Shown here: one piece after another, positions 1,330-20,754 of the stretch
Layout of the letters: each line of letters starts with the position of its first letter
Numbering within the stretch: the stretch's first letter is position 1
DNA from: a virus
UHGV virus genome: UHGV-0378502
Reading direction: 5' to 3' (one strand)
DNA: 22,376 nt
Notes under the pieces: model-generated
Told to the model about the DNA's origin: nothing
The model's database searches: none
The model's input: the letters and a program-made list of their open reading frames with translations, nothing else
Translations under genes and position numbers: made by a program

Positions 1330-1413
1330 TGTTTTTTTATCAAAACATTTTAAGCAGGCAGCTGTTAAGCCATCACCACGATGGCATACAGTTAATCAAA
1401 TAGATGAGGTTGG

Positions 1414-2052
1414 TTAAATATCTTGTTGAATTTTAAAGCATACGCCCAATATGCAAGATAGATCATCCAGCATAATTGAAGGGTAGCGAGGATTCGTGGG
1501 GACTAAAAGAATATCCGGCCCTTCTATCTCCAGTTTACGAATGACAGGTGTTGTGGTCCCTTTGGGTAAGGCAAGGACAATATTTCCTGGTTGTACGGTT
1601 CGATCGGGATCAACAAAAACTGTTGAACCATTTGGGATGGAAACTCCCCCACCAGATGTTGACATACTGTCACTCTCTAGAACAACTGCAAAGGTATTGA
1701 CCGGGATTTCTCCGACAAGCTGCACACAAGAGGTTATTGAGGAATTTTTCATATAATCACTCCAGCTTGCTGCCTGCTGAAGTGATAGTAGCGGAACCGT
1801 TTTTATCGGCGGTAAAGATAGATCAAGCGAATCACCTGTATTTAACTCTCCTCCATTAAGAAGCCAATTTTCGTTTACTTTCAATATTTTTGCCAGTGAA
1901 CTTATGTAACGCGAGGACGGCGCTCCTCCACCGTTCATCCATTGACTTACGGAGCCTTTTGATGCGCCAGTGCCATTGACAAGGTCTTTGCCTTTCAGGT
2001 TTAGCGCATGCATACGTTGGGTTATGCGTTCAGATATAGTTTGCTTGCTCAT
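1414..2052 (-). CDS. cI: Prophage repressor, cI-like (N-terminal HTH plus C-terminal LexA/S24 autopeptidase domain)
   Basis: 212-aa product with an HTH-like N-terminus and a C-terminal domain carrying the Ser (ESDSM) and Lys (VIRKL) of the S24 catalytic dyad; divergent from a cro-like gene across a 90-bp operator region; no Shine-Dalgarno before the ATG (leaderless-type, as for lambda pRM transcripts). Confidence 0.9.
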   Translation of the reverse strand: MSKQTISERITQRMHALNLKGKDLVNGTGASKGSVSQWMNGGGAPSSRYISSLAKILKVNENWLLNGGELNTGDSLDLSLPPIKTVPLLSLQQAASWSDYMKNSSITSCVQLVGEIPVNTFAVVLESDSMSTSGGGVSIPNGSTVFVDPDRTVQPGNIVLALPKGTTTPVIRKLEIEGPDILLVPTNPRYPSIMLDDLSCILGVCFKIQQDI

Positions 2053-2143
2053 GTTTTGATTTTAAAACACAGATGGTTTTGTTTCTTGACTTTCTTTGGT
2101 TTTGATTATTAAACTTTTGACGTTCAGTTTTATGGAGCGACTC
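2051..2143. promoter_or_regulatory. Divergent cI/cro operator-promoter region with three direct repeats
   Basis: Three copies of a TGGTTTTGnTT-like motif at about 2051-2062, 2073-2084 and 2097-2108 (22-24 bp spacing). Rightward -35 TTGACT (2086-2091) with a weak -10 (TATTAA/TTAAAC); leftward TAAAAT hexamer 6 nt before the cI ATG on the minus strand. Inference from sequence patterns. Confidence 0.45.
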
Positions 2144-2386
2144 ATGAAAAAATCAGAAGTATTAGGCTATTTTGGCGGAGTTGTTAAAACAGCCGCAGCT
2201 CTAGGAACGTCAAAAACCACAGTCAGCATGTGGGGGGAAGAGGTTCCGTGGAAATGGGCGTTGCTAATTCAGGCAGTCACTGCCGGGGCGCTCAAATATG
2301 AGTTACACATACCGACGGTTGTCATTCCCGGTTCTGATCATAATCCGCCTTCTAACCAAGGAGGGATTCATGAAAATCAAGCATGA
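2144..2386 (+). CDS. Cro-like HTH regulator, YdaS family-like
   Basis: Small HTH protein (MKKSEVLGYFGGVVKTAAALGTSKTTVSMWG...) divergent from cI at the Cro position. Start chosen at ATG 2144; the track ORF begins at 2096 and 2132 is another in-frame ATG. The 3' end overlaps the next gene. Confidence 0.7.
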   Translation: MKKSEVLGYFGGVVKTAAALGTSKTTVSMWGEEVPWKWALLIQAVTAGALKYELHIPTVVIPGSDHNPPSNQGGIHENQA

Positions 2387-2795
2387 ACACATCCGCATGG
2401 CGATGAATGCCTGGGCGCATCCGGACGGCGAAAAAGTACCGGCTGCGAAAATTACCAAAGCGTATTTCGAGCTGGGAATGACGTTCCCGGAACTGTATGA
2501 CGACAGCCATCCGGAAGCCCTGGCTCGCAATACCCAGAAAATTTTCCGCTGGGTAGAGAAAGACACCCCTGATGCAGTTGAAAAAATTCAGGCGTTGTTA
2601 CCAGCGATCGAAAAGGCAATGCCACCTTTGCTGGTGGCCAGAATGCGCAGCCACAGTTCAGCTTATTTTCGGGAGCTGGTGGAGACGCGGGAGCGACTGG
2701 TGAGAGACGCTGATGATTTTGTCGCAGTGGCAATCGCCGGTTTCAATCAGATGAACCGTGGTGGCCCGGCAGGAAATGCTGTGGCAGTACATTGA
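2370..2795 (+). CDS. YdaT-like / CII-like regulatory protein
   Basis: ATG at 2370 preceded by AGGAGGG (2358-2364); 141 aa beginning MKIKHEHIRMAMNAW, which I recall as characteristic of YdaT-family proteins encoded next to YdaS-type Cro in Rac-like prophages. Family assignment from memory. Confidence 0.6.
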   Translation: MKIKHEHIRMAMNAWAHPDGEKVPAAKITKAYFELGMTFPELYDDSHPEALARNTQKIFRWVEKDTPDAVEKIQALLPAIEKAMPPLLVARMRSHSSAYFRELVETRERLVRDADDFVAVAIAGFNQMNRGGPAGNAVAVH

Positions 2796-2866
2796 CTGAC
2801 AATAGCCATATCGAATCGCTTCCGGCAACTCGTGAGTAAAAAGATTCGGTATCAGAAGAGGTGAGT

Positions 2867-3937
2867 ATGGCTAACGCCTGGCTCAGATTATGGCATGACA
2901 TGCCAAATGACCCTAAGTGGCGAACAATTGCCAGGGTGTCAGGGCAGCCAATTGCAACAGTGATGGCAGTGTATATCCACCTCCTGGTGAGCGCGTCACG
3001 AAATGTCACGCGAGGTCACATTGATGTCACGACAGAAGATTTGGCAAGTGCGCTCGACGTGACAGAAGAGGTAATTGATTCAATTTTGCAGACGATGCAG
3101 GGGCGGGTACTTGATGGTGATTTAATCACTGGATGGGAAAAACGCCAGGTGCTGAAAGAGGACAACGGCAATATTTTGCAAACCGCAAAATCTCCGGCAG
3201 AGCGCAAGAGGGCGCAGCGAGAGAGGGAAAGAAAGCGGGAACAAAATGGCGATTGTCACGGCGAGTCACGAAATGTCACGCACATGTCACGACGAGTCAC
3301 GACAGATAAAGATACAGATAAAGATACAGATCAAGAAGATCAAAACACTATGGTCCATGGCGTAAAAAACGCCACGAACCAGGCAGGGGATGTTCAGACC
3401 GTCACTCCTGGCCAGCCCGCAGGCACGACACCGGAAGCCGATTCAGCGTATGCGCTGAAAGCCGATTCGGGCGCTGTGCAGCAGGTGATGACCGCAAGGC
3501 AGGAGCAATCACACCAACTTCAGCAGCCTGAAGCCGATTCCGCCATTCAGCGGGAAGCCGATCGGGTAGTCCCGGAAAACACCGGGCAGCCTGTGGGACG
3601 AGTGGATTATCCTGATGTGTTCGAACAGGTCTGGCGGGAATACCCGTTGCGTGCCGGGGCAAACCCGAAGAAATCCGCTTTCAGTGCCTGGAAAGCCAGA
3701 TTACGCGAGGGGGTGCCACCAGAGGCCATGCTGGATGGCGTGAGGCGTTACGCAAGATACCTTGCGGCTACCGGGAAAACGGGAACGGAATTTGTTCAGC
3801 GAGCGACGACGTTTTTTGGACCGGACCGGAATTTTGAAAACCCCTGGCTGCTCCCGGTAAGCGGCACGAACAACCAGCGTTGTGTGAATCATATTTCTGA
3901 ACCGGATAACGAAATTCCGCCGGGCTTCAGGGGGTAA
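2867..3937 (+). CDS. Phage replication initiator (replisome-organizer / O-like protein) containing internal iterons
   Basis: ATG 2867 with GAGG upstream. The N-terminus (MANAWLRLWHDMPNDPKWRTIAR...) resembles the phage replisome-organizer N-terminal domain; an acidic low-complexity linker (DKDTDKDTDQEDQ) separates it from a C-terminal domain; position is immediately downstream of the cro/cII-like genes. Family assignment from memory. Confidence 0.75.
   Translation: MANAWLRLWHDMPNDPKWRTIARVSGQPIATVMAVYIHLLVSASRNVTRGHIDVTTEDLASALDVTEEVIDSILQTMQGRVLDGDLITGWEKRQVLKEDNGNILQTAKSPAERKRAQRERERKREQNGDCHGESRNVTHMSRRVTTDKDTDKDTDQEDQNTMVHGVKNATNQAGDVQTVTPGQPAGTTPEADSAYALKADSGAVQQVMTARQEQSHQLQQPEADSAIQREADRVVPENTGQPVGRVDYPDVFEQVWREYPLRAGANPKKSAFSAWKARLREGVPPEAMLDGVRRYARYLAATGKTGTEFVQRATTFFGPDRNFENPWLLPVSGTNNQRCVNHISEPDNEIPPGFRG
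2995..3031 (+). repeat. Iteron cluster 1 inside the initiator gene (4 x GTCACG at about 10-bp phasing)
   Basis: GTCACG/GTCACA at 2995, 3005, 3015 and 3026 (spacing 10, 10, 11), with an inverted CGTGAC copy near 3058. Confidence 0.7.
3255..3345 (+). repeat. Iteron cluster 2 (5 x GTCACG at helical phasing) plus adjacent AT-rich tandem repeat; candidate origin of replication
   Basis: GTCACG at 3255, 3265, 3275, 3286 and 3296 (spacing 10, 10, 11, 10), followed by gataaagataca x2 and an A-rich stretch (3302-3345). The arrangement is analogous to ori-lambda lying inside gene O. Confidence 0.65.
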
Positions 3938-3977
3938 GTGTTAATTTCTGGTCATGAGGTAATTTTCAGGAGGGCTT

Positions 3978-4400
3978 GTGGCAAAAGTTTTTACACAAGA
4001 AGAGCGGGAAAAAATTAAAGGACAGGTTCTTGAACTCGTACGCCAGAGTGGGCGCGAGACGTTACGACAACTGGAAGCTAAAACTGGGGCAACAAGATAT
4101 CTGATGAGCGTTCTGGCCAGAGAGCTGGTTGCCAGTGGCGATGTATACAATTCTGGCTACGGGTTATTCCCGTCTGAACAGGCTCGTAAAGACTGGCAAA
4201 ATGCCCGCAAAAAATTATCGAGGGCAAAGCTGAAGAAACCGGTTGTGGTTGATCCGGACCTTATCTGGTCGTTACCTGACGGAGAAATACGTCGCTACGA
4301 CAGTCGCCTAAACATAATCTGTCGCGAGTGCCGGAAGAGTGAAGCTATGCAGCGTGTACTGGCTTTCTATCAGGGTAATTTTCAGGAGGCGGTACTGTGA
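3978..4400 (+). CDS. Hypothetical protein (140 aa)
   Basis: GTG start at 3978 preceded by AGGAGGG (3967-3973); ORF follows the initiator gene; no recognisable family. Confidence 0.55.
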   Translation: MAKVFTQEEREKIKGQVLELVRQSGRETLRQLEAKTGATRYLMSVLARELVASGDVYNSGYGLFPSEQARKDWQNARKKLSRAKLKKPVVVDPDLIWSLPDGEIRRYDSRLNIICRECRKSEAMQRVLAFYQGNFQEAVL

Positions 4401-4457
4401 GTGAAATTAGCTATCAGGCTTCAATTACCGCTGGCATTCGCATCAAAGGAGAGGAGC

Positions 4458-4814
4458 ATGGAAATAAAACCAGAGGATGAGTTAAGCAATATCGTTTTAT
4501 TTCCGGTAAAAGAGGATGACCCTCGTAATCAGGTTAATTTTCTTTATGAGCCATCGGAAAGACCATATTGTCATCACGCCTCTGTCCGGGTTGACGAAAA
4601 AGAGCGTCAGGTCCGCTGTAAAATCTGCGGTGCAGTTGTGGAGCCATTTGACTGGATGCTCTCTGTGGCGAAAAGAGAAACCAGACTGGCAGATGATGTA
4701 AGGCTCTTGCGTCAGGAGGAGCGGGAAAGGCGAAAAAATATAGAAAAGCTAATTCAGATTGAGCGTAACGCGAAAGCGCGGATACGCAGGGCGACAAAAT
4801 CCAGAACTGAATAA
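4458..4814 (+). CDS. Hypothetical protein with Cys/His cluster (possible zinc ribbon), 118 aa
   Basis: ATG 4458 preceded by AAGGAGAGGAG; contains CHH ... CKIC spacing suggestive of a zinc-binding motif; basic coiled C-terminus. The track ORF begins at GTG 4401. Confidence 0.55.
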   Translation: MEIKPEDELSNIVLFPVKEDDPRNQVNFLYEPSERPYCHHASVRVDEKERQVRCKICGAVVEPFDWMLSVAKRETRLADDVRLLRQEERERRKNIEKLIQIERNAKARIRRATKSRTE

Positions 4815-4878
4815 TTAAATTTAGCTCTGTTAAAAATTTAATCCTTAACCGGAGGGATTTCTGCACCCTCAGAACATC

Positions 4879-4910
4879 AGGAGGCCGCCCGAAAGGGCGG
4901 TAGTTAAATG
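4879..4910 (+). promoter_or_regulatory. Hairpin-split ribosome binding site (SD - stem-loop - AUG)
   Basis: AGGAGG at 4879-4884, then a perfect 6-bp stem with GAAA tetraloop (CCGCCC gaaa GGGCGG, 4885-4900), then ATG at 4908. Linear SD-AUG spacing is 23 nt; folding the hairpin would bring it to about 7 nt. Confidence 0.35.
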
Positions 4911-5090
4911 CGAAAGTTTAAAATAATTATTGAAACGGGAATAGCCGGTGGAGATTTCGAGGATGAATTCGAAGTGGATGATGATGCGATGCCTGATGAA
5001 ATACATGACGAAGAAAAAGATATTTTCTTTAACTACTGCAATTACTCATATCACGAAATAAAAGACGAAGAGGAAGAACAAAATGGCTGA
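4908..5090 (+). CDS. Small acidic protein (60 aa)
   Basis: ATG 4908; highly acidic product (DFEDEFEVDDDAMPDEIHDEE...); stop overlaps the next ATG (ATGGCTGA). Confidence 0.45.
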   Translation: MRKFKIIIETGIAGGDFEDEFEVDDDAMPDEIHDEEKDIFFNYCNYSYHEIKDEEEEQNG

Positions 5091-5259
5091 TTTTGGTTCA
5101 ACTAAATACAACGTCAGTTTTGAAGAATGGCATGAACTGTTAATGGACTATGCAGAGTTACGTGGTGGCAGTGCTGCTGATGCTGAAGCATGGCGTGATG
5201 ATTATGAAGCAGGAAAAACTCCGGTCGAAGCATATTGTGATGAGTGGGGCGATGAATGA
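5083..5259 (+). CDS. Small hypothetical protein (58 aa), translationally coupled
   Basis: ATG 5083 overlapping the stop of the previous ORF; product MADFGSTKYNVSFEEWHELLMDYAELRGGSAADAEAWRDDYEAGKTPVEAYCDEWGDE. Falls below the 60-aa cut-off of the supplied track and was found by reading the sequence. Confidence 0.45.
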   Translation: MADFGSTKYNVSFEEWHELLMDYAELRGGSAADAEAWRDDYEAGKTPVEAYCDEWGDE

Positions 5260-5314
5260 GCGAGGTTAATTATCAGGAAGGGCATGAAACGGCGGGGCAA
5301 GCAAAAACAGTGGC

Positions 5315-5572
5315 ATGGCGATATCGCTACGTGAAAAAAAAGGCGTTACGGACTTTCAGGGGAAGTAGTGGTCTGGTGACTGGAAATATGTACCGAAAAA
5401 AGAGGATTGTAACGACAGGCCGAACTATGAAATTCAGGCCTTATTCACTGCCCCGCCAGTCCCGGTTACATCAGAAGAACTGGTTAAAGCTGTGCACTTT
5501 TATGAACAACTAAAACGCGAAAATCCACCAGCATCCGGAAACCTGATTACAGATTCCCAGATAAGGCAATGA
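5315..5572 (+). pseudogene. Interrupted ORF: protein-like reading frame broken by a single in-frame TAG (5366-5368); alternatively read via the overlapping frame-0 ORF 5256..5513
   Basis: Frame beginning at ATG 5315 reads MAISLREKKGVTDFQGK-[TAG]-WSGDWKYVPKKEDCNDRPNYEIQALFTAPPVPVTSEELVKAVHFYEQLKRENPPASGNLITDSQIRQ. The supplied track instead calls a very basic 85-aa ORF in another frame (5256..5513). Two A_AAA_AAG heptamers occur in the frame-0 ORF (5336-5342 and 5396-5402). Confidence 0.3.
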
Positions 5573-5742
5573 GCTACCTAGCGCAGAACGGGCTGATAAG
5601 TATGGGGAATGTTTTACGATGAATATTTAGACTAAAGAGTTTGTAACGCTATGTAAGTGATTTTTTCTGGTTTAGATATTTATATGTCCGGCCAAATTGA
5701 GGTGTGTTTAAATGTAATTGCACATTGATTGTAGGAGGAATA

Positions 5743-5922
5743 ATGAAAAACGCATTGCAGTTTTTGTTTGTTGCGTTTTGGTTGTTCGTATCATGTATGC
5801 CCATCATCTTCACAGCAAGGTATATGGAAAAAGTTGATGTTTTGATATTAATATTTGGATATATAAATGCCCTTTTTTTAGGGGTGTTCATGGCGGTCAT
5901 GTGCATTGAATACTGGCGGTAA
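5743..5922 (+). CDS. Small hydrophobic membrane protein (59 aa, two predicted TM segments)
   Basis: ATG 5743 preceded by AGGAGGA (5733-5739); product MKNALQFLFVAFWLFVSCMPIIFTARYMEKVDVLILIFGYINALFLGVFMAVMCIEYWR; very AT-rich surroundings (5580-5950). Confidence 0.5.
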   Translation: MKNALQFLFVAFWLFVSCMPIIFTARYMEKVDVLILIFGYINALFLGVFMAVMCIEYWR

Positions 5923-6180
5923 ATACAGCGAACGCCATTGGTTTAGTTGGATATTTACTGTGCCGGACAAAAACGGTTTGCGGGGAAATCTTAGTTAAGT
6001 AGAATGACTGCGGGTGCTTGAGGCTATCTGTCTCAGGCATGAACACCAAAAGGCAGATAGAGAAAAGCCCCAGTTAACATTACGCGTCCTGCAAGACGCT
6101 TAACATTAATCTGAGGCCATATCTATGCGACACATAGAGATTAGCCTCTTACGGACCGAAAGGTCAAGGAGAAGCAGGCT

Positions 6181-6336
6181 ATGAAGCAGCAAAAGGCGAT
6201 GTTAATCGCCCTGATCGTCATCTGTTTAACCGTCATAGTGACGGCACTGGTAACGAGGAAAGACCTCTGCGAGGTACGAATCCGAACCGGCCAGACGGAG
6301 GTCGCTGTCTTCACAGCTTACGAACCTGAGGAGTAA
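6181..6336 (+). CDS. hokD: Hok-family type I toxin (HokD/RelF-like, 51 aa)
   Basis: Product MKQQKAMLIALIVICLTVIVTALVTRKDLCEVRIRTGQTEVAVFTAYEPEE matches my recollection of HokD/RelF; long structured leader upstream and a GC hairpin plus T-run downstream, as expected for hok mRNAs. Confidence 0.85.
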   Translation: MKQQKAMLIALIVICLTVIVTALVTRKDLCEVRIRTGQTEVAVFTAYEPEE

Positions 6337-6406
6337 GAGACCTGGCGGGGGAGAAATCCCTCGCCACCTCTGATGTGTCAGGCATCCTCAACGCACCCGC
6401 ACTTAA

Positions 6407-6431
6407 CCCGCTTCGGCGGGTTTTGTTTTTT
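6407..6431 (+). terminator. Intrinsic terminator at the 3' end of the hok transcript
   Basis: CCCGC ttcg GCGGG stem-loop (6407-6420) followed by TTTTGTTTTTT. Confidence 0.6.
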
Positions 6432-6503
6432 CCTGGCATTCTGGTTTACAATTCGCACGTCAGCCTGAACACCTGACACCTGCTGCGCCAGCAGAGAAAA
6501 CAG

Positions 6504-6776
6504 ATGGCGCACAAAACCAAATTTCACAATTCTGATACCGACCTTGCCATCCGGCATGAGCGGCGTTCACACGCATTTAAAACCGACTGGTACCAACACC
6601 CACCATGTACTGAAGAACAGGCCGAATGGCTGATTCATTCTTACCGCAGGCGCGGGTTCGAGGTTAAGAAAGCTCTCAGTCTCGACTATCGGCACTGGAT
6701 AATCTCTGTCAGGCTGCCTTATTCCGAACGCCCACCACGTCCGTCCCGCACTTTCCAGCAACGGATCTGGAGGTAA
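6504..6776 (+). CDS. Hypothetical protein (90 aa)
   Basis: ATG 6504; stop immediately followed by a GGAGG RBS and the start of the next gene; no recognisable family. Confidence 0.5.
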   Translation: MAHKTKFHNSDTDLAIRHERRSHAFKTDWYQHPPCTEEQAEWLIHSYRRRGFEVKKALSLDYRHWIISVRLPYSERPPRPSRTFQQRIWR

Positions 6777-6777
6777 C

Positions 6778-7836
6778 GTGCGGGTATTACTTAGACCTGT
6801 TCTGGTGCCTGAGCTTGGGCTGGTGGTCCTTAAGCCGGGCCGTGAATCCATACAGATATTTCATAATCCTCGAGTGCTGGTGGAGCCGGAACCGAAAAGC
6901 ATGTGCGGCCTGCCATCCGGAGTCGTCCCTGCCGTTCGCCAGCCGCTGGCGGAGGATAAATCATTACTGCCATTTTTCAGCAATGAGCGTGTGATTCGTG
7001 CTGCTGGCGGCGCTGGTGCACTGTCTGACTGGCTGTTGCGCCATATTAAATCCTGCCAGTGGCCACACGGTGATTATCACCACAGTGAAACCGTCATTCA
7101 CCGTTATGGTACCGGCGCAATGGTGTTGTGCTGGCACTGCGACAACCAGTTGTGTGACCAGACCTCAGAATCACTTGAGCAACTTGCTCACCAAAACTTG
7201 TCAGCATGGATGATTGACGTCATCCGTCACGCAATCAGCGGTACGCAGGAGAGGGAGTTATCGCTGGCCGAATTATCCTGGTGGGCGGTCTGCAATCAGG
7301 TGGCTGATGCGCTTCCGGAGTCTGTATTGTGTCGTTCACTGGGATTACCGGTGGAAAAAATCCGCTCCGTATACCGTGAGAGTGACATCGTACCGGGAGA
7401 ACAGACTGCCACCAGCATACTGAAGCAGCGCACAAAAAATATTGCGCTGCCACTTCACGTCCACCAGCAACAGCCCCCACTCCAGGAAAAGACGTTAGTA
7501 AGCATCGCCGTTGATCCGGAGTCTCCGGCTCAGTATCTCCAGCGCCAGAAACCACGACGGGAAGAGATGCCTGTATACACGCGCTGGGTAAAAACGCAGA
7601 AATGCATGACGTGTGGTAATCAGGCAGATGATCCGCATCACATCATTGGTCATGGACTGGGAGGGATGGGAACAAAGGCTGATGATTTGTTTGTTATTCC
7701 GCTGTGCCGTAAATGCCATAGCGAACTACACGCCGGGGTAAAAGATTTTGAAGAAAAACACGGCAGCCAGCTGTTGTTGCTGATTCGTTTTTTAATGCAC
7801 GCGAGAAATTCGGGTGTCCTGAAGTGGAAAGCATGA
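6778..7836 (+). CDS. DUF968-like prophage protein with C-terminal HNH-like zinc-finger motif (YdfU-like)
   Basis: GTG 6778 with GGAGG 5 nt upstream; C-terminal CMTCGN ... DPHHIIGHGLGG ... CRKCHSELH (CxxC ... HH ... CxxCH); stop abuts the rusA start. Family assignment from memory of Qin-prophage YdfU. Confidence 0.65.
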   Translation: MRVLLRPVLVPELGLVVLKPGRESIQIFHNPRVLVEPEPKSMCGLPSGVVPAVRQPLAEDKSLLPFFSNERVIRAAGGAGALSDWLLRHIKSCQWPHGDYHHSETVIHRYGTGAMVLCWHCDNQLCDQTSESLEQLAHQNLSAWMIDVIRHAISGTQERELSLAELSWWAVCNQVADALPESVLCRSLGLPVEKIRSVYRESDIVPGEQTATSILKQRTKNIALPLHVHQQQPPLQEKTLVSIAVDPESPAQYLQRQKPRREEMPVYTRWVKTQKCMTCGNQADDPHHIIGHGLGGMGTKADDLFVIPLCRKCHSELHAGVKDFEEKHGSQLLLLIRFLMHARNSGVLKWKA

Positions 7837-8202
7837 ATGACTGAACGCATAGAATTTGTTTTGCCTTACCCGCCAACGGTGAACACTTACTGGCGACGTC
7901 GTGGCAGCACATATTTTGTATCAAAAGCCGGTGAGCGTTATCGCCGTGATGTGGCGCTTATTGTTCGCCAGCAGCGGCTGAAATTAAACCTGTCCGGAAG
8001 GCTGGCGATAAAGATTATTGCAGAGCCACCGGATAAACGTCGTCGTGACCTGGACAATATCCTGAAAGCACCACTGGATGCGCTGACGCATGCCGGACTT
8101 CTCATAGACGACGAGCAGTTTGATGAAATCAATATTGTGCGCGGTCAGCGCGTTCCTGGGGGGCGGCTGGGCGTGAAGATTTACAAAATTGAGAGTGAGT
8201 GA
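7837..8202 (+). CDS. rusA: Holliday-junction resolvase RusA
   Basis: 121-aa product with RusA hallmarks (PPTVNTYW near the N-terminus, RRDLDN acidic catalytic region); typical nin-region position just upstream of the Q-like gene. Confidence 0.9.
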   Translation: MTERIEFVLPYPPTVNTYWRRRGSTYFVSKAGERYRRDVALIVRQQRLKLNLSGRLAIKIIAEPPDKRRRDLDNILKAPLDALTHAGLLIDDEQFDEINIVRGQRVPGGRLGVKIYKIESE

Positions 8203-8210
8203 TCGTAAAT

Positions 8211-8753
8211 ATGATATACCCGGAAATTACAGGCAAAAGCGGCGAGCATTTACGTCTAAAAACGCTGGAAGCCGTCTGGATCCAGGGGAAATTACGGATG
8301 TGGGGGCGTTGGTCGTATATAGGTGGTGGCAAACCAGGAAATATGTTCAATCAGTTGCTGGCATCCAAAAAACTGACAAAAACCGCAATCAATGAAGCCC
8401 TGCGTAGAATCAGGGAGTCAGGGATTGATAAACCAGAGCTGGAAGCATTCTTGCGAGAGATGATCGCTGGCAGACAGAAGAGCTGGTTGTCTCACTGTAC
8501 TGATGCAGAGGCGTTACGCATTGATGGGGTGATAAGTAAAGCGCTTGCACGTTATCCTGGATTGATTGATATCCTGCGGCAAAGGTACGAAGGGCGGGGG
8601 ATGAGTAAACGCAAAATGGCTGAATTGTTGAATGAGGTGCACCCGGAATGGTGTTTTAGTACATGCGAAAAGCGAATTGCTAATTGGTTGGCTGTTGCTG
8701 AATATGCGCTATACATCCCTATGCGAGAATCGTTTGCTCAAAAAATGTCTTGA
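8211..8753 (+). CDS. Putative late-gene antiterminator (Q-like)
   Basis: Positional: follows rusA and precedes a promoter-like element plus a strong intrinsic terminator and the late genes. Contains an LRMWGRWSY segment reminiscent of the WG-W motif I recall in 21-type Q proteins. Start could be GTG 8199 (overlapping the rusA stop) or ATG 8211. Confidence 0.5.
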   Translation: MIYPEITGKSGEHLRLKTLEAVWIQGKLRMWGRWSYIGGGKPGNMFNQLLASKKLTKTAINEALRRIRESGIDKPELEAFLREMIAGRQKSWLSHCTDAEALRIDGVISKALARYPGLIDILRQRYEGRGMSKRKMAELLNEVHPEWCFSTCEKRIANWLAVAEYALYIPMRESFAQKMS

Positions 8754-8837: not shown

Positions 8838-8861
8838 AACCCGCTTTATGCGGGTTTTTTT
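8838..8861 (+). terminator. Intrinsic terminator (tR'-like) downstream of the Q-like gene
   Basis: 7-bp stem AACCCGC / GCGGGTT with a 5-nt loop, followed by a T-run (8855-8861). Confidence 0.7.
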
Positions 8862-8984: not shown

Positions 8985-9182
8985 ATGCTAAAACAGCAGG
9001 ATATGACCGAAACCGCCAGAGTGGTGTTTAATGAATTAAGCGTCACCGAACCGGCGACCGTCGGGGAAATTGCGCAGAATACTTACCTTTCACGCGAACG
9101 CTGCCAGTTAATACTGACTCAGCTTGTTATGGCGGGTCTGGCAGATTATCAGTTCGGTTGTTACAGACGCCTTCCTCAGTGA
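8985..9182 (+). CDS. Small hypothetical protein (65 aa), possible winged-helix DNA-binding protein
   Basis: ATG 8985 (MLKQQDMTETARVVFNELSVTEPATVGEIAQNTYLSRERCQLILTQLVMAGLADYQFGCYRRLPQ); the track ORF starts further upstream at 8862 without an obvious RBS. Confidence 0.4.
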   Translation: MLKQQDMTETARVVFNELSVTEPATVGEIAQNTYLSRERCQLILTQLVMAGLADYQFGCYRRLPQ

Positions 9183-9332: not shown

Positions 9333-10382
9333 ATGATTAATACTGTAAAAATATCCAGTTGTGAGTTAATCAACGCTGATTGCCTGGAATTTATCCAGAC
9401 CTTACCGGAAAACTCTGTCGATCTGATAGTCACAGACCCGCCATACTTTAAAGTGAAGCCCGAGGGCTGGGATAACCAGTGGGAGGGCGACGATGATTAC
9501 CTGAAATGGCTGGACCAGTGTCTGGCGCAGTTCTGGCGGGTACTGAAGCCTGCCGGAAGTCTTTACCTGTTCTGTGGTCATCGCCTGGCATCTGACACCG
9601 AAATCATGATGCGTGAGCGCTTTAATGTGCTGAACCACATTATCTGGGCGAAGCCGTCCGGACGCTGGAACGGGTGCAATAAGGAAAGTCTGCGGGCGTA
9701 TTTTCCGGCAACAGAGCGCATTCTGTTTGCAGAACATTATCAGGGACCGTATCGCCCGAAAGATGATGGCTATGTGGCACAGGGGCGCGAGCTAAAACAG
9801 CACGTCATGGCCCCGCTGATTTCTTACTTTCGTGATGCGCGTAAATCACTGGGAATAACGTCAAAACAGATAGCGGAAGCCACCGGAAAGAAAAACATGG
9901 CTTCGCACTGGTTTGGTACCAGTCAGTGGCAGTTACCGAACGAGGGTGATTACAACAAATTGCAGGCGTTGTTTGCGCGTGTTGCGGCAGAAAAACATCA
10001 GCGCGGGGAACTGGAAAAGCCACACCACCAGCTGGTCAGCACATACAGTGAGCTGAACCGGCAGTATACGGAACTGCTGAGTGAATATAAAAATTTGCGG
10101 CGGTATTTCGGTGTGACGGCGCAGGTTCCGTACACCGATGTCTGGACGCATAAACCGGTGCAGTACTATCCAGGGAAACATCCGTGCGAAAAACCGGCAG
10201 AAATGCTGCAGCAGATAATCAACGCGAGCAGTCGTCCGGGAGACCTGGTTGCAGATTTTTTTATGGGTTCAGGTTCAACGGTAAAAGCGGCGATGGCACT
10301 GGGGCGTTGTGCGATTGGTGTTGAGCTGGAGACAGGACGTTTTGAACAGACAGTCAGGGAAGTTCAGGATTTAATCGTTTGA
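9333..10382 (+). CDS. Orphan DNA methyltransferase, beta-class amino-methyltransferase (N6-adenine or N4-cytosine)
   Basis: Motif IV DPPY (VTDPPYF) near the N-terminus and motif I FxGxG (DFFMGSGST) near the C-terminus, the circularly permuted order typical of beta-class MTases (PF01555-like). No adjacent restriction endonuclease gene. Confidence 0.85.
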   Translation: MINTVKISSCELINADCLEFIQTLPENSVDLIVTDPPYFKVKPEGWDNQWEGDDDYLKWLDQCLAQFWRVLKPAGSLYLFCGHRLASDTEIMMRERFNVLNHIIWAKPSGRWNGCNKESLRAYFPATERILFAEHYQGPYRPKDDGYVAQGRELKQHVMAPLISYFRDARKSLGITSKQIAEATGKKNMASHWFGTSQWQLPNEGDYNKLQALFARVAAEKHQRGELEKPHHQLVSTYSELNRQYTELLSEYKNLRRYFGVTAQVPYTDVWTHKPVQYYPGKHPCEKPAEMLQQIINASSRPGDLVADFFMGSGSTVKAAMALGRCAIGVELETGRFEQTVREVQDLIV

Positions 10383-10431
10383 AACGGATGAGATTGCAGA
10401 ATTAATTACGCACCATTATTATTCTGCTCCC

Positions 10432-10507
10432 GGCCCTTTAGCTCAGTGGTGAGAGCGAGCGACTCATAATCGCCAGGTCGCTGGTTCAAATCCAGCAAGG
10501 GCCACCA
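10432..10507 (+). tRNA. tRNA with CAT anticodon (Ile2/lysidine-type or Met)
   Basis: Manual cloverleaf: acceptor GGCCCTT/AAGGGCC, D-arm GCTC-AGTGGTGA-GAGC, anticodon stem AGCGA/TCGCC with loop CTCATAA, T-arm GCTGG-TTCAAAT-CCAGC, discriminator A, encoded CCA. Resembles the ileZ-type tRNA I recall from Stx-converting phages. Confidence 0.8.
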
Positions 10508-10514
10508 TCACATA

Positions 10515-10591
10515 CCGCCATTAGCTCATCGGCAGAGAGCGTCAGCTTTCGAAACTGGCTGTGTGGGGCTCGGGTCCCCGATGGCAATCCA
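10515..10591 (+). tRNA. tRNA-Arg(TCG)-like gene, possibly degenerate
   Basis: D-arm TAGCTCA ... GAGC and an anticodon loop TTTCGAA (anticodon TCG) are recognisable and a CCA is present at 10589-10591, but in my manual fold the first two acceptor pairs and one anticodon-stem pair are mismatched and the T-loop is atypical. Boundaries are approximate. Confidence 0.45.
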
Positions 10592-10604
10592 TTATCTGCA
10601 TTAT

Positions 10605-10681
10605 GCGTTGTTAGCTCAGCCGGACAGAGCAATTGCCTTCTAAGCAATCGGTCACTGGTTCGAATCCAGTACAACGCGCCA
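10605..10681 (+). tRNA. tRNA-Arg (anticodon TCT, reads AGA/AGG)
   Basis: Manual cloverleaf with perfect acceptor stem GCGTTGT/ACAACGC, D-arm GCTC ... GAGC, anticodon stem ATTGC/GCAAT with loop CTTCTAA, T-arm ACTGG-TTCGAAT-CCAGT, discriminator G, encoded CCA. Confidence 0.85.
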
Positions 10682-10695
10682 CGCTTATTTTTCCA

Positions 10696-10720
10696 GGCTC
10701 GCTTTGGCGGGCCTTTTTCA
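10696..10720 (+). terminator. Intrinsic terminator after the tRNA cluster
   Basis: GGCTCGC tttg GCGGGCC hairpin followed by TTTTT. Confidence 0.5.
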
Positions 10721-10928
10721 TATCCGCGCCCGTTATGAAGCGCCACCGCGTTCTGCTAATGCTGAAGCCCTTCGTCAGCTGACTGATGTTGCAGATACTG
10801 ATGATACTGTGAATGTGCTGTGTCTGTGTCTGGATATCGCTGACCAGGACGGTATCGGTCAGGAAGAAGAAGCGCAACTGAAGAAAATTGCGCAGGCGCT
10901 GCAGTTGCCACTGGAGCAGTACCTGTGA
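10704..10928 (+). pseudogene. Start-less 3' remnant of a TerB-like domain gene
   Basis: The frame has no ATG; the track start is a TTG inside the terminator hairpin. The C-terminal half (LDIADQDGIGQEEEAQLKKIAQALQL) fits the ADG ... E ... L pattern I associate with TerB-like domains. Confidence 0.35.
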
Positions 10929-11077
10929 AAAGTGCGCGCCTTGTGCTGGCTGTCATCCTGTTGTTTCTGGTAGTGATGGTGGATTTCACCGGACGACTGA
11001 TGTCAGTGCTGGCAGATGGTGTGCTGGTGGCGATGGCGCTGATCGTGCTCCGGCCTTTACTGCGTAAATCTGAATAA
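10925..11077 (+). CDS. Small membrane peptide (50 aa from GTG; 33 aa from first ATG)
   Basis: GTG 10925 overlaps the stop of the preceding remnant; hydrophobic product MKSARLVLAVILLFLVVMVDFTGRLMSVLADGVLVAMALIVLRPLLRKSE. May itself be a remnant. Confidence 0.35.
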   Translation: MKSARLVLAVILLFLVVMVDFTGRLMSVLADGVLVAMALIVLRPLLRKSE

Positions 11078-11165: not shown

Positions 11166-11558
11166 ATGTCTGAACCCTTATCCGGTTCCGGCACGGCTGC
11201 GGCGCTGGGTGGCGCGACGGTATTCGGGCTGTTTACCGGGATGGATTTCGGGATTGTGTTTGGCGCGTTCGCCGGGGCGTTATTTGTGGCAACGATGCCG
11301 CAGTCACTTTCAGTCTGGCGCGTGGTGGCGCATTTTCTGGTGTCGTTTATTGTCGGCGTGCTGGGAGCGCGTGTGCTGTCAGCCTGGATTGCATCAAAAA
11401 CAGGGTATGACGGTACATCAGCAGATGCGCTTTGCGCGGTGCTGGTCTCGGTGGTGTCGGTGAAGATTCTCTCGTTCATCCACCAGCAGGATATTGCATC
11501 GCTGGTGTCCGGTGTGTTCTCCCGCCTGCGGGGTGGAGGAGGCGGCAATGTTAAGTAA
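11166..11558 (+). CDS. Putative holin (130 aa, multiple TM segments, charged C-terminus)
   Basis: ATG 11166 with AGGAGGAAG RBS; three to four predicted TM helices and a Gly-rich basic C-terminus; first gene of a lysis cassette followed by an endolysin. Not lambda S-like. Confidence 0.6.
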   Translation: MSEPLSGSGTAAALGGATVFGLFTGMDFGIVFGAFAGALFVATMPQSLSVWRVVAHFLVSFIVGVLGARVLSAWIASKTGYDGTSADALCAVLVSVVSVKILSFIHQQDIASLVSGVFSRLRGGGGGNVK

Positions 11559-11823
11559 CCTTCCCGGATTGCTGAATGTGGCGTTATGCACGGTTATCGT
11601 GCTGACGCTCTTTTTTTATCGTCGCCGTGATTCCAGACATAAACCGCTGGTGTCATGGCTGGCCTGGCTGCTGATGCTGCTGTATGCCTTTGCGCCTCTC
11701 AGCTATCTGTGTGGTCGCCCGTTAGCAACGGGCTGGCTGGAAGTGTTTTTTAACCTGCTGTTCTGCGTGCTGGTGATACGCGCACGCGGGAACGTCACAA
11801 AAATCTTTCCATTGTTGAGGTGA
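11548..11823 (+). CDS. Second lysis-cassette membrane protein (91 aa; holin/antiholin candidate)
   Basis: ATG 11548 with GGAGGAGG RBS, overlapping the end of the holin gene; three hydrophobic segments; lies directly upstream of the endolysin. Confidence 0.5.
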   Translation: MLSNLPGLLNVALCTVIVLTLFFYRRRDSRHKPLVSWLAWLLMLLYAFAPLSYLCGRPLATGWLEVFFNLLFCVLVIRARGNVTKIFPLLR

Positions 11824-11825
11824 AT

Positions 11826-12203
11826 ATGCCGGGTAAATTCAGATTCAGCCGTCGCAGTGAAAAAAATCTGGAGGGTGTCAAACCACAGCTGGTTGCTGTA
11901 GTTCGCCGTGCGCTGGAGCTGACGGAGGTTGATTTCGGTATTACGGAAGGCCTGCGCAGTAAGTATCGCCAGAAACAGCTGGTTGCGGAAGGGAAAAGCC
12001 AGACCATGAACAGCCGCCACCTGACCGGTGATGCGGTGGATGTTGTGGCCTACATCGGCAGCCAGGTGTCATGGGAGTGGCCTCTGTACGAGAAAATCGC
12101 ACAGGCATTTAAGCAGGCTGCCGCAGAGCTGGGGATCGCTATCGAATGGGGCGGGGACTGGAAAACGCTGAAAGACGGACCTCACTTTCAGCTGAAGCGA
12201 TAA
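11826..12203 (+). CDS. Endolysin, peptidase M15 family (zinc L-alanyl-D-glutamate / D-Ala-D-Ala-type endopeptidase)
   Basis: Conserved zinc-ligand motifs SRHLTGDAVD (H-x6-D) and GGDWKTLKDGPHFQL (C-terminal His); 125 aa; follows the holin genes; intrinsic terminator downstream. Confidence 0.85.
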   Translation: MPGKFRFSRRSEKNLEGVKPQLVAVVRRALELTEVDFGITEGLRSKYRQKQLVAEGKSQTMNSRHLTGDAVDVVAYIGSQVSWEWPLYEKIAQAFKQAAAELGIAIEWGGDWKTLKDGPHFQLKR

Positions 12204-13784: not shown

Positions 13785-14304
13785 ATGAAGGTTAATAAAA
13801 AGAAACTTGCCGAAATTTTCAACGTGGATCCGCGAACGATTGAACGCTGGCAGTCTCAGGGACTCCCTTGCGTCTCCGGAGGTGGTAAGGGCGTTGAATC
13901 TGTATTTGATACCTCCATGGCAATTCAGTGGTATGCGCAGAGGGAGGCTGATATCGAAAATGAAAAACTCCGTAAAGAGGTTGAGGATTACAGGGCTGCC
14001 AGTGAGGCAGATCTCCAGCCTGGGACTATTGAGTACGAACGCCATCGACTTACGCGTGCGCAGGCCGACGCACAGGAGCTGAAGAATGCCAGAGACTCCG
14101 CAGAAGTGGTGGAAACCGCATTCTGTACTTTCGTGCTGTCACGGATCGCAGGTGAAATTGCCAGTATTCTTGACGGGATCCCTCTCTCGGTACAGCGGCG
14201 TTTTCCGGAACTGGAAAACCGACATGTTGATTTCCTGAAACGGGATATCATCAAAGCCATGAACAAAGCAGCCGCGCTGGATGAACTGATACCGGGGTTG
14301 CTGA

Positions 14305-14330
<26 letters not shown>
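13785..14330 (+). CDS. nu1: Terminase small subunit Nu1
   Basis: 181 aa; from about residue 70 onward essentially identical to my recollection of lambda gpNu1 (... [60 protein letters not shown] ...), while the N-terminal DNA-binding region is homologous but clearly divergent. Confidence 0.95.
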
Positions 14331-18011
<3,681 letters not shown>

Positions 18012-18031
<20 letters not shown>

Positions 18032-19331
18032 TCTCCCGCATATTGCCAGCATGGCTTTTAATGAGCCGCTGATGCTTGAACCCGCCTATGCGCGGGTTTT
18101 CTTTTGTGCGCTTGCAGGCCAGCTTGGGATCAGTCGCCTGACGGATGCAGTATCCGGCGACAGCCTGACTGCCGGAGAGGCACCCGCGGCGCTGGCGTTA
18201 TCCGGTGATGATGACGGACCACGACAGGCCCGCAGTTATCAGGTCATGAACGGCATCGCCGTGCTGCCGGTGTCCGGTACGCTGGTCAGCCGGACGCGGG
18301 CGCTGCAGCCGTATTCGGGAATGACCGGTTACAACGGCATTATCGCCCGTCTGCAACAGGCTGCCAGCGATCCGATGGTGGACGGCATTCTGCTCGATAT
18401 GGACACACCGGGCGGGATGGTGGCGGGAGCATTTGACTGTGCTGACATCATCGCCCGTGTGCGTGACATAAAGCCGGTATGGGCGCTGGCCAACGACATG
18501 AACTGCAGTGCAGGTCAGCTGCTTGCCAGCGCCGCCTCCCGGCGTCTGGTCACGCAGACCGCCCGGACAGGCTCCATCGGCGTCATGATGGCTCACAGTA
18601 ATTACGGCGCTGCGCTGGAGAAACAGGGCGTGGAAATCACGCTGATTTACAGCGGCAGCCATAAGGTGGATGGCAACCCCTACAGCCATCTACCGGGTGA
18701 TGTCCGGGAAACACTGCAGTCCCGGATGGATGCAACCCGCCGGATGTTTGCGCAGAAGGTGTCGGCATATACCGGCCTGTCCGTGCAGGCTGTGCTGGAT
18801 ACCGAGGCTGCAGTGTACAGCGGTCAGGAGGCCATTGATGCCGGACTGGCTGATGAACTTGTTAACAGTACCGATGCGATCACCGTCATGCGTGATGCAC
18901 TGGATGCACGTAAATCCCGTCTCTCAGGAGGGCGAATGACCAAAGAGACTCAATCAACAACTGTTTCAGCCACTGCTTCGCAGGCTGACGTTACTGGCGT
19001 GGTGCAAGCGACGGAGGGCGAGAACGCCAGCGCGGCGCAGCCGGACGTGAACGCGCAGATCACCGCAGCGGTTGCGGCAGAAAACAGCCGCATTATGGGG
19101 ATCCTCAACTGTGAGGAGGCTCACGGACGCGAAGAACAGGCCCGCGTGCTGGCAGAAACCCCCGGTATGACCGTGGAAACGGCCCGCCGTATTCTGGCCG
19201 CAGCACCACAGAGTGCACAGGCGCGCAGTGACACTGCGCTGGATCGTCTGATGCAGGGGGCACCGGCACCGCTGGCTGCAGGTAACCCGGCATCTGATGC
19301 CGTTAACGATTTGCTGAACACACCAGTGTAA
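18012..19331 (+). CDS. C: Head maturation protease / scaffold C (S49 family)
   Basis: 439 aa from GTG 18012 (GGAGGAG RBS at 18001-18007), beginning (M)TAELRNLPHIASMAFNEPLML as I recall for lambda gpC; the track ORF start at 17877 is an upstream in-frame extension overlapping B. Confidence 0.9.
18936..19331 (+). CDS. nu3: Scaffolding protein Nu3 (in-frame internal start within C)
   Basis: Internal ATG 18936 preceded by GGAGGG, giving the 131-aa product MTKETQSTTVSATASQADV ... corresponding to lambda gpNu3, which is co-terminal with C. Confidence 0.75.
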   Translation: MTKETQSTTVSATASQADVTGVVQATEGENASAAQPDVNAQITAAVAAENSRIMGILNCEEAHGREEQARVLAETPGMTVETARRILAAAPQSAQARSDTALDRLMQGAPAPLAAGNPASDAVNDLLNTPV

Positions 19332-19340
19332 GGGATGTTT

Positions 19341-19673
19341 ATGACGAGCAAAGAAACCTTTACCCATTACCAGCCGCTGGGCAACAGTGACCCGGCTCAT
19401 ACCGCAACCGCGCCCGGCGGATTGAGTGCGAAAGCGCCTGCAATGACCCCGCTGATGCTGGACACCTCCACCCGTAAGCTGGTTGCGTGGGATGGCACCA
19501 CCGACGGTGCTGCCGTTGGCATTCTTGCGGTTGCTGCTGACCAGACCAGCACCACACTGACGTTCTACAAGTCCGGCACGTTCCGTTATGAGGATGTGCT
19601 CTGGCCGGAGGCTGCCAGCGACGAGACGAAAAAACGGACCGCGTTTGCCGGAACGGCAATCAGCATCGTTTAA
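19341..19673 (+). CDS. D: Head decoration protein D
   Basis: 110 aa, [43 protein letters not shown] ..., matching lambda gpD as I recall it; ATG 19341 (the track ORF starts two codons upstream). Confidence 0.95.
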
Positions 19674-19728: not shown

Positions 19729-20754
19729 ATGTCGATGTACACAACCGCCCAGCTGCTGGCGGCAAATGAGAAGAAATTTAAGTTTGATCCGCTGTTTCTG
19801 CGTCTCTTTTTCCGTGAGAGCTATCCCTTCACCACGGAGAAAGTCTATCTCTCACAAATTCCGGGACTGGTAAACATGGCGCTGTACGTTTCGCCGATTG
19901 TTTCCGGTGAGGTTATCCGTTCCCGTGGCGGCTCCACCTCTGAATTTACGCCGGGATATGTCAAACCCAAGCATGAGGTGAATCCGCAGATGACCCTGCG
20001 TCGCCTGCCGGATGAAGATCCGCAGAATCTGGCGGACCCGGCTTACCGCCGCCGTCGCATCATCATGCAGAACATGCGAGACGAAGAGCTGGCCATTGCT
20101 CAGGTCGAAGAGATGCAGGCAGTTTCTGCTGTGCTTAAGGGCAAATACACCATGACCGGTGAAGCCTTCGATCCGGTTGAGGTGGATATGGGCCGCAGTG
20201 CGGCGAACAACATCACACAGTCCGGTGGTACGGAGTGGAGCAAGCGTGACAAGTCCACGTATGACCCGACCGACGATATCGAAGCCTATGCGCTGAACGC
20301 CAGCGGAGTGGTGAATATCATCGTGTTTGATCCGAAAGGCTGGGCGCTGTTCCGTTCCTTCAAAGCCGTCAAGGAGAAGCTGGATACCCGTCGCGGCTCT
20401 AATTCCGAGCTGGAGACAGCGGTAAAAGACCTGGGCGAAGCGGTGTCCTATAAGGGGATGTATGGCGATACGGCGATCGTCGTGTATTCCGGACAGTACG
20501 TGGAAAACGACGTCAAAAAGAACTTCCTGCCGGACAACACGATGGTGCTGGGGAACACTCAGGCACGCGGTCTGCGCACCTATGGCTGCATTCAGGATGC
20601 GGACGCACAGCGCGAAGGTATTAACGCCTCTGCCCGCTACCCGAAAAACTGGGTGACCACCGGCGATCCGGCGCGTGAGTTCACCATGATTCAGTCAGCA
20701 CCGCTGATGCTGCTGGCTGACCCTGATGCGTTCGTGTCCGTACAACTGGCGTAA
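19729..20754 (+). CDS. E: Major capsid protein E
   Basis: 341 aa from ATG 19729, MSMYTTAQLLAANEKKFKFDPLFLRLFFRESYPFTTEKVYLSQIPGLVNMALYVSPIVSGEVIRSRGG ..., near-identical to my recollection of lambda gpE. Confidence 0.95.
   Translation: MSMYTTAQLLAANEKKFKFDPLFLRLFFRESYPFTTEKVYLSQIPGLVNMALYVSPIVSGEVIRSRGGSTSEFTPGYVKPKHEVNPQMTLRRLPDEDPQNLADPAYRRRRIIMQNMRDEELAIAQVEEMQAVSAVLKGKYTMTGEAFDPVEVDMGRSAANNITQSGGTEWSKRDKSTYDPTDDIEAYALNASGVVNIIVFDPKGWALFRSFKAVKEKLDTRRGSNSELETAVKDLGEAVSYKGMYGDTAIVVYSGQYVENDVKKNFLPDNTMVLGNTQARGLRTYGCIQDADAQREGINASARYPKNWVTTGDPAREFTMIQSAPLMLLADPDAFVSVQLA

Follow-up and report, generated by a model that had tools for sequence, protein, structure and literature searches.

Introduction

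The tRNA genes ileZ, argN, and argO form a compact cassette that has long been known and annotated, and whose closest described representatives are those of the Stx phage 933W (NC_000924), of VT2-Sakai, and of many Stx2a and Stx2c phages. In 933W, the cassette is preceded by a feature annotated as 'pT; putative tRNA promoter' and lies between the late antiterminator gene and the lysis genes, with stxA2 starting 91 nt after argO. Its argN folds into a perfect cloverleaf, with zero stem mismatches and the T-loop UUCGAGU. The general idea that phage tRNAs compensate for codon usage has been restated in a Stx-phage paper; in the literature that we searched for ileZ, argN, argO, and Stx-phage tRNA genes, we found neither a discussion of argN function or decay nor a mention of ileZ together with argN. 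More generally, tRNA genes in phage and prophage clusters do decay, and then show uncompensated mismatches, lost tertiary nucleotides, sub-threshold scores, and near-neutral drift. Here, we analyze an ileZ–argN–argO cassette in a 22,376-nt stretch of DNA (UHGV-0378502; hereafter, the window) and follow its middle gene through E. coli prophages.

Results

A 933W-type tRNA cassette in a toxin-less prophage

Positions 10383–10740 of the window match the chromosome of the ETEC strain H10407 (NC_017633.1) and several other ETEC genomes at 100%. The window is part of a lambdoid prophage of H10407 that looks defective, because its head-decoration gene runs directly into an IS66-family element (19843–22376) and PGAP lists two more pseudogenes. 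Its early genes comprise cI/cro-like regulators, hokD/sok, a DUF968 gene, and RusA, and terminase, portal, protease, and head-decoration genes follow the lysis cassette (Pfam, PGAP).

Over the 22.4-kb window, ARAGORN called three tRNA genes and no others; they share the plus strand, and their coordinates are identical to those of the initial annotation. They span ~250 nt in the anticodon order CAT, TCG, TCT, which ARAGORN also returned for 933W. The genes and their surroundings are as follows:

8211..8753, plus strand: Q-like late antiterminator gene (ETEC_RS06605); DUF1133 (342 bits), weak match to Phage_antitermQ (28.3 bits; cut-off 26)
8839..8861, plus strand: hairpin with T-run (ACCCGC-TTTAT-GCGGGT, then TTTTTT) just 3′ of the Q-like gene, read from the sequence
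8985–9182, plus strand: small ORF between the Q-like gene and the methyltransferase gene
9333..10382, plus strand: full-length DNA methyltransferase gene (Pfam N6_N4_Mtase, 152.5 bits; PGAP DNA-methyltransferase)
10394..10422, plus strand: putative sigma-70 promoter pT (TTGCAG, 17 nt, TATTAT), ending 10 nt before ileZ
10432..10507, plus strand: ileZ, anticodon CAT, CCA encoded (ARAGORN; Rfam 72.5 bits, E 2e-14; PGAP tRNA-Ile)
10515..10591, plus strand: argN allele of the W lineage (defined below), derived from tRNA-Arg(TCG), probable pseudogene (ARAGORN; Rfam 26.4 bits)
10605..10681, plus strand: argO, tRNA-Arg, anticodon TCT, CCA encoded (ARAGORN; Rfam 70.1 bits, E 1e-13; PGAP tRNA-Arg)
10695..10719, plus strand: terminator-like hairpin closing the cassette (hairpin 10695–10714; 8 pairs, of which 6 G-C; loop of 4; TTTTT tail)
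10725–10928, plus strand: TerB-like pseudogene, 5′-truncated (PGAP), in the slot of stxAB in Stx phages
10925–11077, plus strand: DUF3927 gene (PGAP), likewise in the slot of stxAB
11166..12203, plus strand: lysis cassette of two holins and an M15 endolysin (Pfam Phage_holin_8, Phage_holin_3_7, Peptidase_M15_4; PGAP)

Judged by its sequence, the segment 10432–10681 is the ileZ–argN–argO cassette typical of 933W-like lambdoid phages, here residing in a toxin-less prophage. Its genes agree with those of 933W in kind, order, and anticodons, and the two cassettes are 91.4% identical over 348 nt, which upholds the likeness to Stx phages that the initial annotation had drawn. In a phage collection, a 358-nt query matched 289 records, mostly Stx2-converting phages at 90–95% identity, with annotated ileZ, argN, and argO features underlying the matches. 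The differences from 933W are unevenly spread: none in the 76 nt of ileZ, one in the 77 nt of argO (A37 in the window, G37 in 933W), and a 2-nt indel only in the spacers, as opposed to 12 of 77 positions in argN.

As in 933W, the cassette lies downstream of a late antiterminator gene and upstream of lysis genes. Its placement between the Q-like gene and the lysis cassette had been recognized before, to which we add that the small ORF and the methyltransferase gene intervene. The DUF1133 type of the Q-like protein sets it apart from that of 933W, and the methyltransferase gene is full-length in the window but reduced to a 3′ remnant before the cassette of 933W. Several Stx phages also carry a methyltransferase gene in this place.

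Downstream of argO, where 933W carries stxA2, the window has the TerB-like pseudogene—strain IrN carries an intact counterpart, labeled TerB family protein—and the DUF3927 gene. A tblastn search with StxA2 of 933W returned no stxA homologue in the 2.5 kb downstream of argO, and PGAP annotates no toxin gene, in keeping with the earlier remark that none follows the tRNAs. The same search gave an stxA match at +91 nt in 15 related loci. Since stxA and stxB are absent downstream of argO, the window is not of the Stx-converting phage type.

The hexamers, spacing, and position of the putative pT equal those of the 933W feature, and the element is kept in 11 of 11 loci carrying the same argN allele lineage. 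The hairpin at 8839..8861 takes the position of the tR′-type terminator annotated after Q in 933W (L001, 2656–2678) and is probably a terminator of this type. Both assignments are based on the comparison with 933W: neither element was listed by a consensus promoter and terminator scan, with pT falling below its cut-off. A terminator is also annotated in 933W at the same relative position after argO as the hairpin at 10695..10719.

A further close match to the locus is found in a non-Stx lambdoid prophage of strain IrN (NZ_CP187535), where the counterpart of 10383–10740 is 94.7% identical. The same kinds of genes flank it in the same order, both upstream (small ORF, methyltransferase) and downstream (DUF3927 gene, two holins, M15 endolysin), and its ileZ and argO are identical to those of the window. 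In contrast, IrN carries a canonical argN, annotated as tRNA-Arg by PGAP, and a different argN–argO spacer, where the window has a decayed argN. This confinement of the differences to argN and the spacer next to it is indicative of patchwise recombination among alleles of the cassette.

The middle gene combines uncompensated mismatches with altered tertiary positions

In the RefSeq annotation of the H10407 region, a tRNA-Ile is followed by one tRNA-Arg, and the middle gene is left without a feature by PGAP, which annotates canonical argN alleles elsewhere as tRNA-Arg. The locus tags skip from ETEC_RS06620 to ETEC_RS06630, a gap that may stem from an earlier call since withdrawn. A genome match search found a single copy of the tRNA cassette in H10407, and the strain thus lacks an intact argN elsewhere.

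The middle gene shares 65 of 77 bases with the argN annotated in 933W and is thus not a chance tRNA-like match. The initial annotation had described it as possibly degenerate, and had named a canonical, high-scoring covariance fold as the outcome that would speak against this. Instead, the Rfam tRNA model (RF00005; gathering score 29 bits) gave it 26.4 bits (E 0.0017 in 361 nt), which is below the gathering score and was seen only in a permissive search over 10380–10740; argN scores 54.8 bits in 933W and 50.8–59.4 bits across canonical alleles.

Both the cmscan alignment and a mapping onto the cloverleaf agree with the earlier manual fold, which had noted acceptor and anticodon-stem mismatches and an atypical T-loop. 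Relative to 933W argN, G72→A and G71→A give C1·A72 and C2·A71 at the terminal acceptor pairs, and G39→A gives C31·A39 at the pair of the anticodon stem nearest the loop. Two further changes, C27→U and C49→U, lead to wobble pairs. The T-loop reads CUCGGGU, with U54→C and A58→G relative to that of 933W, and the D-loop AUCGGCAGA carries G19→C in the register of the family, although an alternative D-loop numbering could keep the GG pair. Nearly all of the 12 differences are transitions, and none is compensated.

Folding of single tRNAs by minimum free energy (MFE) proved uninformative, as good tRNAs also lacked a cloverleaf MFE, and it was replaced by the direct energy of the cloverleaf. This amounts to −16.9 kcal/mol for the middle gene, compared with −28.3 kcal/mol for 933W argN and values down to −31.3 kcal/mol for canonical alleles. 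The cloverleaf of the middle gene lies 9 kcal/mol above its MFE, and the corresponding gap in canonical alleles is 1.5–4.4 kcal/mol.

Could the product, however non-canonical, still work as a tRNA-Arg(UCG) and decode CGA and CGG? ARAGORN calls the gene with the anticodon TCG. The allele has kept its UCG anticodon, A20, C35, G36, and the D stem; its T stem is paired throughout, and CCA is encoded. C·A pairs might be tolerated here as C1·A72 is in initiator tRNA, the altered T-loop might still fold, and weak wobble-like C·A pairs can be envisaged to leave the gene some residual function. However, the gene would have to work with three uncompensated stem mismatches, without G19, U54, and A58, at about half the score of canonical alleles, and with a cloverleaf weaker than the canonical one by ~11 kcal/mol. 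Together with the family-wide evidence below, this makes a working tRNA unlikely in our assessment.

argN varies widely between two nearly invariant neighbors

To place the allele in its family, we collected at least 120 prophage loci by a pattern scan of IMG/VR whose anchors lie at the 3′ terminus of ileZ and the 5′ terminus of argO. These contained 39 full-length argN alleles plus deleted or rearranged forms, which fall into four classes (locus counts among the matches listed):

Canonical argN: no stem mismatch; ~59 loci; Rfam 50.8–59.4 bits
Class B: A6·A67, A52·C62, and G58; 38 loci; Rfam ~43 bits
W class (the lineage of the window): C1·A72, C2·A71, C31·A39, G19C, U54C, and A58G; 11 loci; Rfam 26.4 and 22.2 bits
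Deleted or rearranged argN: anticodon arm deleted or replaced; 10 loci; no Rfam match

Class B bears on the question of function from the other side. Carrying two mismatches and G58, it is much commoner than W (793 records at ≥99% identity) and still annotated as tRNA-Arg by PGAP, so that deviations of this extent may be tolerated; for the same reasons, we do not claim class B to be dead. The wider family nevertheless speaks against tolerated deviation in the W lineage. Across 38 aligned argN alleles, we saw no compensatory double change at any of the 21 cloverleaf pairs; at six of them, every departure is a mismatch. Sister W alleles keep losing positions, namely U55, the CCA end, and D-arm positions, and ARAGORN, which calls the allele of the window, does not call those of loci L093, L089, and L046.

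The neighboring genes behave differently. Among the matches listed, ileZ is the same as in the window in 110 of 121 loci and argO in 83 of 121 (both being the modal alleles), an apparent invariance that the exact ileZ and argO anchors of the IMG/VR sample bias upward. Their rare variants include compensated stem changes. Nucleotide diversity over unique haplotypes is 0.005 in ileZ and 0.036 in argO, compared with 0.118 in argN and 0.12–0.20 in the spacers (among the matches listed).

Within the W lineage, argN has six segregating sites, U55 and the CCA end among them, as opposed to none in the 117 free sites of ileZ and argO (Fisher p = 0.003). Flanking non-coding DNA changed at 2 of 61 sites, which does not differ from argN (p = 0.30); the spacers changed at 0 of 21 sites, so that argN (6 of 77) lies slightly, and not significantly, above the neutral expectation. 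W-lineage argN therefore evolves like non-coding DNA, and ileZ and argO are under strong purifying selection. As the rate of argN is not different from that of flanking non-coding DNA and its neighbors are invariant, its change amounts to near-neutral drift.

The same numbers invite another reading, in which a degenerate argN is kept under diversifying selection for a role other than decoding—as a decoy for nucleases or toxins, as a spacer for the processing of ileZ and argO, or as a source of an sRNA. Indeed, argN varies far more than ileZ and argO, its changes within the W lineage exceed those of the spacers, and 113 of 123 loci preserve both its length of 77 nt and its register (among the matches listed). 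Moreover, the phage sRNAs STnc100, AgvB, and AsxR lie just downstream in related loci, so that regulatory RNAs recur in this part of the genome. Yet argN does not significantly exceed non-coding DNA in variation, and its changes are scattered over stems, T-loop, D-loop, and CCA, with no focus on the anticodon loop. The ten loci in which the anticodon arm is deleted or replaced likewise argue against a retained role, as does a fold of the middle gene that is no better than that of shuffled sequence (z = −0.11). In the search of 10380–10740, no Rfam family besides tRNA was matched. We thus regard a retained non-decoding role as very improbable.

A related proposal is that the mutated alleles (W, and perhaps class B) are selectively diversified tRNA-like RNAs, acting as decoys or escape variants against nucleases and toxins that target tRNA-Arg, or as modules that tune the output of ileZ and argO. 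If true, this would explain both the kept 77-nt frame and the faster change of argN than of the adjacent spacers; we consider it a long shot.

The allele occurs in resident prophages, and stx follows canonical-type argN

Of 5426 complete E. coli genomes, 87 carry the W lineage, defined as ≥95% identity over 97 nt; ETEC, E2348/69, and some O26 strains are among these carriers. The lineage is also present in 11 IMG/VR contigs, and at least three distinct contexts were seen downstream of it. No annotated feature underlies the allele in the 40 listed genomes of these 87 carriers. All occurrences of the lineage are in resident prophages, and none was seen among 50,697 phage records—a distribution that, like the missing annotation, does not favor a functional tRNA.

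A sequencing or assembly artefact of one record, a general possibility for any degenerate gene, has next to no chance of accounting for the defects: it is ruled out by the 100% identity of 10383–10740 in at least six independent complete genomes and by the spread of the lineage over 87 of them as well as the IMG/VR contigs. The number of downstream contexts likewise rules out a pseudogene confined to one clonal prophage.

The cassette as such is present in more than half of the complete E. coli genomes, with roughly 7,600 copies spread over 3,063 of them. Among species-representative genomes, a scan found no W allele, and a broader argN pattern found the cassette only in Escherichia-related records. 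The broader pattern also matched an unrelated yahM relic.

The stx genes are unevenly distributed over the argN classes. Among the matches listed, all 15 stx-linked cassettes carry an argN of the canonical type, one of them (L068) damaged by an indel, whereas stx follows none of the 54 cassettes of class B, of class W, or with a deleted argN for which enough sequence was available downstream (Fisher p = 3e-5). Selection for argN in Stx phages could produce such an association; the close kinship of Stx2 phages is, however, a confounder, and we do not take the association as proof of selection on argN.

Rare codons are enriched in the prophage, mainly outside the head genes

For codon usage, we set the window's annotated CDSs (5163 codons) against 41 core genes of H10407 (14,633 codons). 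Counts per 1000 codons were as follows (p ≤ 1e-4 for all five differences):

ATA: prophage 8.9, host core 3.3, odds ratio 2.7
AGA: prophage 4.8, host core 0.9, odds ratio 5.5
AGG: prophage 5.4, host core 0.5, odds ratio 10.0
CGA: prophage 7.9, host core 3.4, odds ratio 2.3
CGG: prophage 13.2, host core 3.8, odds ratio 3.5

The initial annotation had proposed looking for an enrichment of AUA, AGA, AGG, and CGA in the late genes. The prophage is indeed enriched in all four codons, but the excess of ATA, AGA, and AGG sits mainly in the early, left genes; in the head genes, ATA and AGA are about as frequent as in the host. The counts thus do not support the late genes as the driver of the rare-codon demand.

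A codon-supply rationale fits ileZ and argO. With its CAU anticodon, ileZ is, as predicted from its sequence, of the tRNA-Ile2 type; it contains C4-G69 and C5-G68, which we take to be TilS determinants of E. coli tRNA-Ile2, and it is annotated as tRNA-Ile by PGAP in H10407 and IrN, as is ileZ of 933W. For argN, the 2.3-fold enrichment of CGA and the 3.5-fold enrichment of CGG would suit a working tRNA-Arg(UCG). By the same token, a lost codon demand does not explain the decay of argN, because CGA and CGG are enriched as well. E. coli without the cassette decodes these codons with its own CGN-reading tRNAs.

Discussion

The cassette most likely comprises two working rare-codon tRNA genes, ileZ and argO, and an argN pseudogene. 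As part of the late operon behind the Q-like antiterminator gene, it would be transcribed along with that operon as well as from its own putative pT, yielding a single precursor that is probably cut by host tRNA-processing enzymes. C34 of the ileZ product would be lysidinylated by host TilS and the tRNA would then read AUA; argO, as tRNA-Arg(UCU), would read AGA and AGG. Both genes are intact, and their most likely role is to relieve a shortage of host tRNAs for codons that occur 2.7–10 times more often in prophage genes than in host core genes. In the argN relic, ~12 uncompensated substitutions open acceptor and anticodon-stem pairs and alter G19, U54, and A58 of the elbow. With stem pairs opened and elbow nucleotides altered, the product would most likely be unstable, poorly processed, or poorly charged, and because it is likely defective, the relic appears to be a tRNA pseudogene whose drift roughly keeps pace with that of the non-coding DNA around it.

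In its uncompensated mismatches, lost tertiary nucleotides, sub-threshold score, and near-neutral drift, the relic resembles decaying tRNAs of phage and prophage clusters in general; it is an allele in ordinary decay within a known cassette. Unlike in tRNA pseudogenes at large, the decay is allele-specific within one named family: canonical, mildly affected, heavily affected, and deleted argN co-circulate in E. coli prophages.

These results do not overturn current understanding. Their immediate value lies in annotation, as the H10407 prophage can be credited with two credible rare-codon tRNAs, readers of AUA and of AGA/AGG, and a tRNA-Arg(UCG) relic, which at 10515–10591 should be flagged as a pseudogene and not counted as a third functional tRNA. 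A modest evolutionary observation is that, within one cassette, ileZ and argO are almost frozen while argN spans the range from canonical to deleted, which suggests that argN is dispensable in most prophage backgrounds. Its variation amounts to a natural experiment on what tRNA-Arg(UCG) contributes to the expression of Stx-phage genes.

Linkage of argN alleles to stx

Among the listed cassettes of phage 933W (L001) and the related IMG/VR prophage loci (L004-L123), stxA lies downstream of 15, and all 15 carry argN of the canonical class; one of these stxA-linked cassettes, L068, harbors an indel-damaged argN allele. stx was found downstream of 0 of the 54 listed cassettes in which argN is of class B (A6·A67, A52·C62, G58), of class W (the decayed lineage of the window) or deleted. 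With loci treated as independent despite their shared phylogeny, comparison of argN class with stx linkage gave a Fisher p = 3e-5. In the RefSeq annotation of the host genome (NC_017633.1), the cassette's tRNA-Ile and tRNA-Arg are tagged ETEC_RS06620 and ETEC_RS06630, respectively, and RS06625 is skipped. This gap in the tags is consistent with the middle tRNA having been called in a previous round of annotation and subsequently removed.

A solitary argN-like relic beneath yahM

An argN-like sequence unaccompanied by ileZ or argO occurs in E. coli, Shigella, E. albertii, E. ruysiae, and E. whittamii:

L126-L128, L131-L135, and L137 (for example, L128 727-807), all outside the window: argN-like relic

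It is present in 5169 of 5426 complete E. coli genomes, where it lies beneath the annotated small gene yahM. This tRNA-like relic of 81 nt shares the acceptor, D, and T arms of argN and has a different anticodon arm (CCGCCATTAGCTCATCAGGAAGAGCAGACGACAACCAGGATTGTTGTATGGTACGGGGTTCGAGGCCTCGATGGCGGTCCA). ARAGORN called it a tRNA-Ser(gga), and an Rfam search of the relic returned no tRNA match at E ≤ 1. The 'rearranged' cassette alleles of three prophage loci (L027, L067, L091) contain an inner segment similar to that of the relic.

Small RNAs in the vicinity of the cassette

Rfam searches of the listed loci placed the sRNA family STnc100 within a few hundred nucleotides downstream of most related cassettes, and the anti-sRNAs AgvB or AsxR downstream of some, for example:

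L049 1012-1271: downstream sRNA
L022 2647-2901: downstream sRNA
L080 4433-4623: downstream sRNA

None of the three families was found in the window at the Rfam gathering score; an STnc100 match at 10576-10721, which with 17.7 bits stays below that family's gathering score of 47, overlaps argO and the terminator. Read on the minus strand, ileZ (10432-10505) gave a likewise sub-threshold match to 'Plastid-ycf2 5′UTR RNA' (36.3 bits; gathering score 65.7), which reappeared at all ileZ copies scanned in related loci. Because it coincides exactly with ileZ every time, this is most likely a tRNA-derived cross-match and not a separate element.

Prophage state and codon usage

The prophage in the window looks defective. 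Annotation and Rfam searches yielded the following features:

5256-5572: pseudogene (annotation)
10725-10928: pseudogene (annotation)
19843-22376: IS66-family element with tnpA, tnpB, and an ISCro1-type transposase (annotation)
6012-6183: sok RNA of a hok/sok type I toxin-antitoxin module (Rfam, 106.7 bits)
6181-6336: hokD of the same module (annotation)

The IS66-family element sits directly 3′ of the head-decoration gene, at the expected place of the major capsid gene. The hok/sok module spans 6012-6336.

It is chiefly the early/left genes (222-8753) that use the codons ATA, AGA, and AGG (13.4, 8.3, and 8.3 per 1000 codons, respectively), more so than the head genes (13785-19673; 4.6, 1.5, and 3.5), where CGG peaks at 16.7 per 1000 codons.

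Differences between the window and 933W

Position 37 of argO was located in both sequences:

Window 10641: argO position 37
933W (L001) 3261: argO position 37

The window and 83 of the 121 related loci listed have A37, whereas 933W and six other loci have G37, which adjoins the UCU anticodon and is an unusual base at this position. Upstream of pT, the putative tRNA promoter, the DNA methyltransferase gene of 933W is, as read by eye, reduced to its last ~120 nt (L001 2890-3008). In the window, by contrast, the gene is complete with 349 codons, 10264-10382 being the counterpart of this remnant. The 933W arrangement appears to derive, by deletion, from the methylase-tRNA arrangement.
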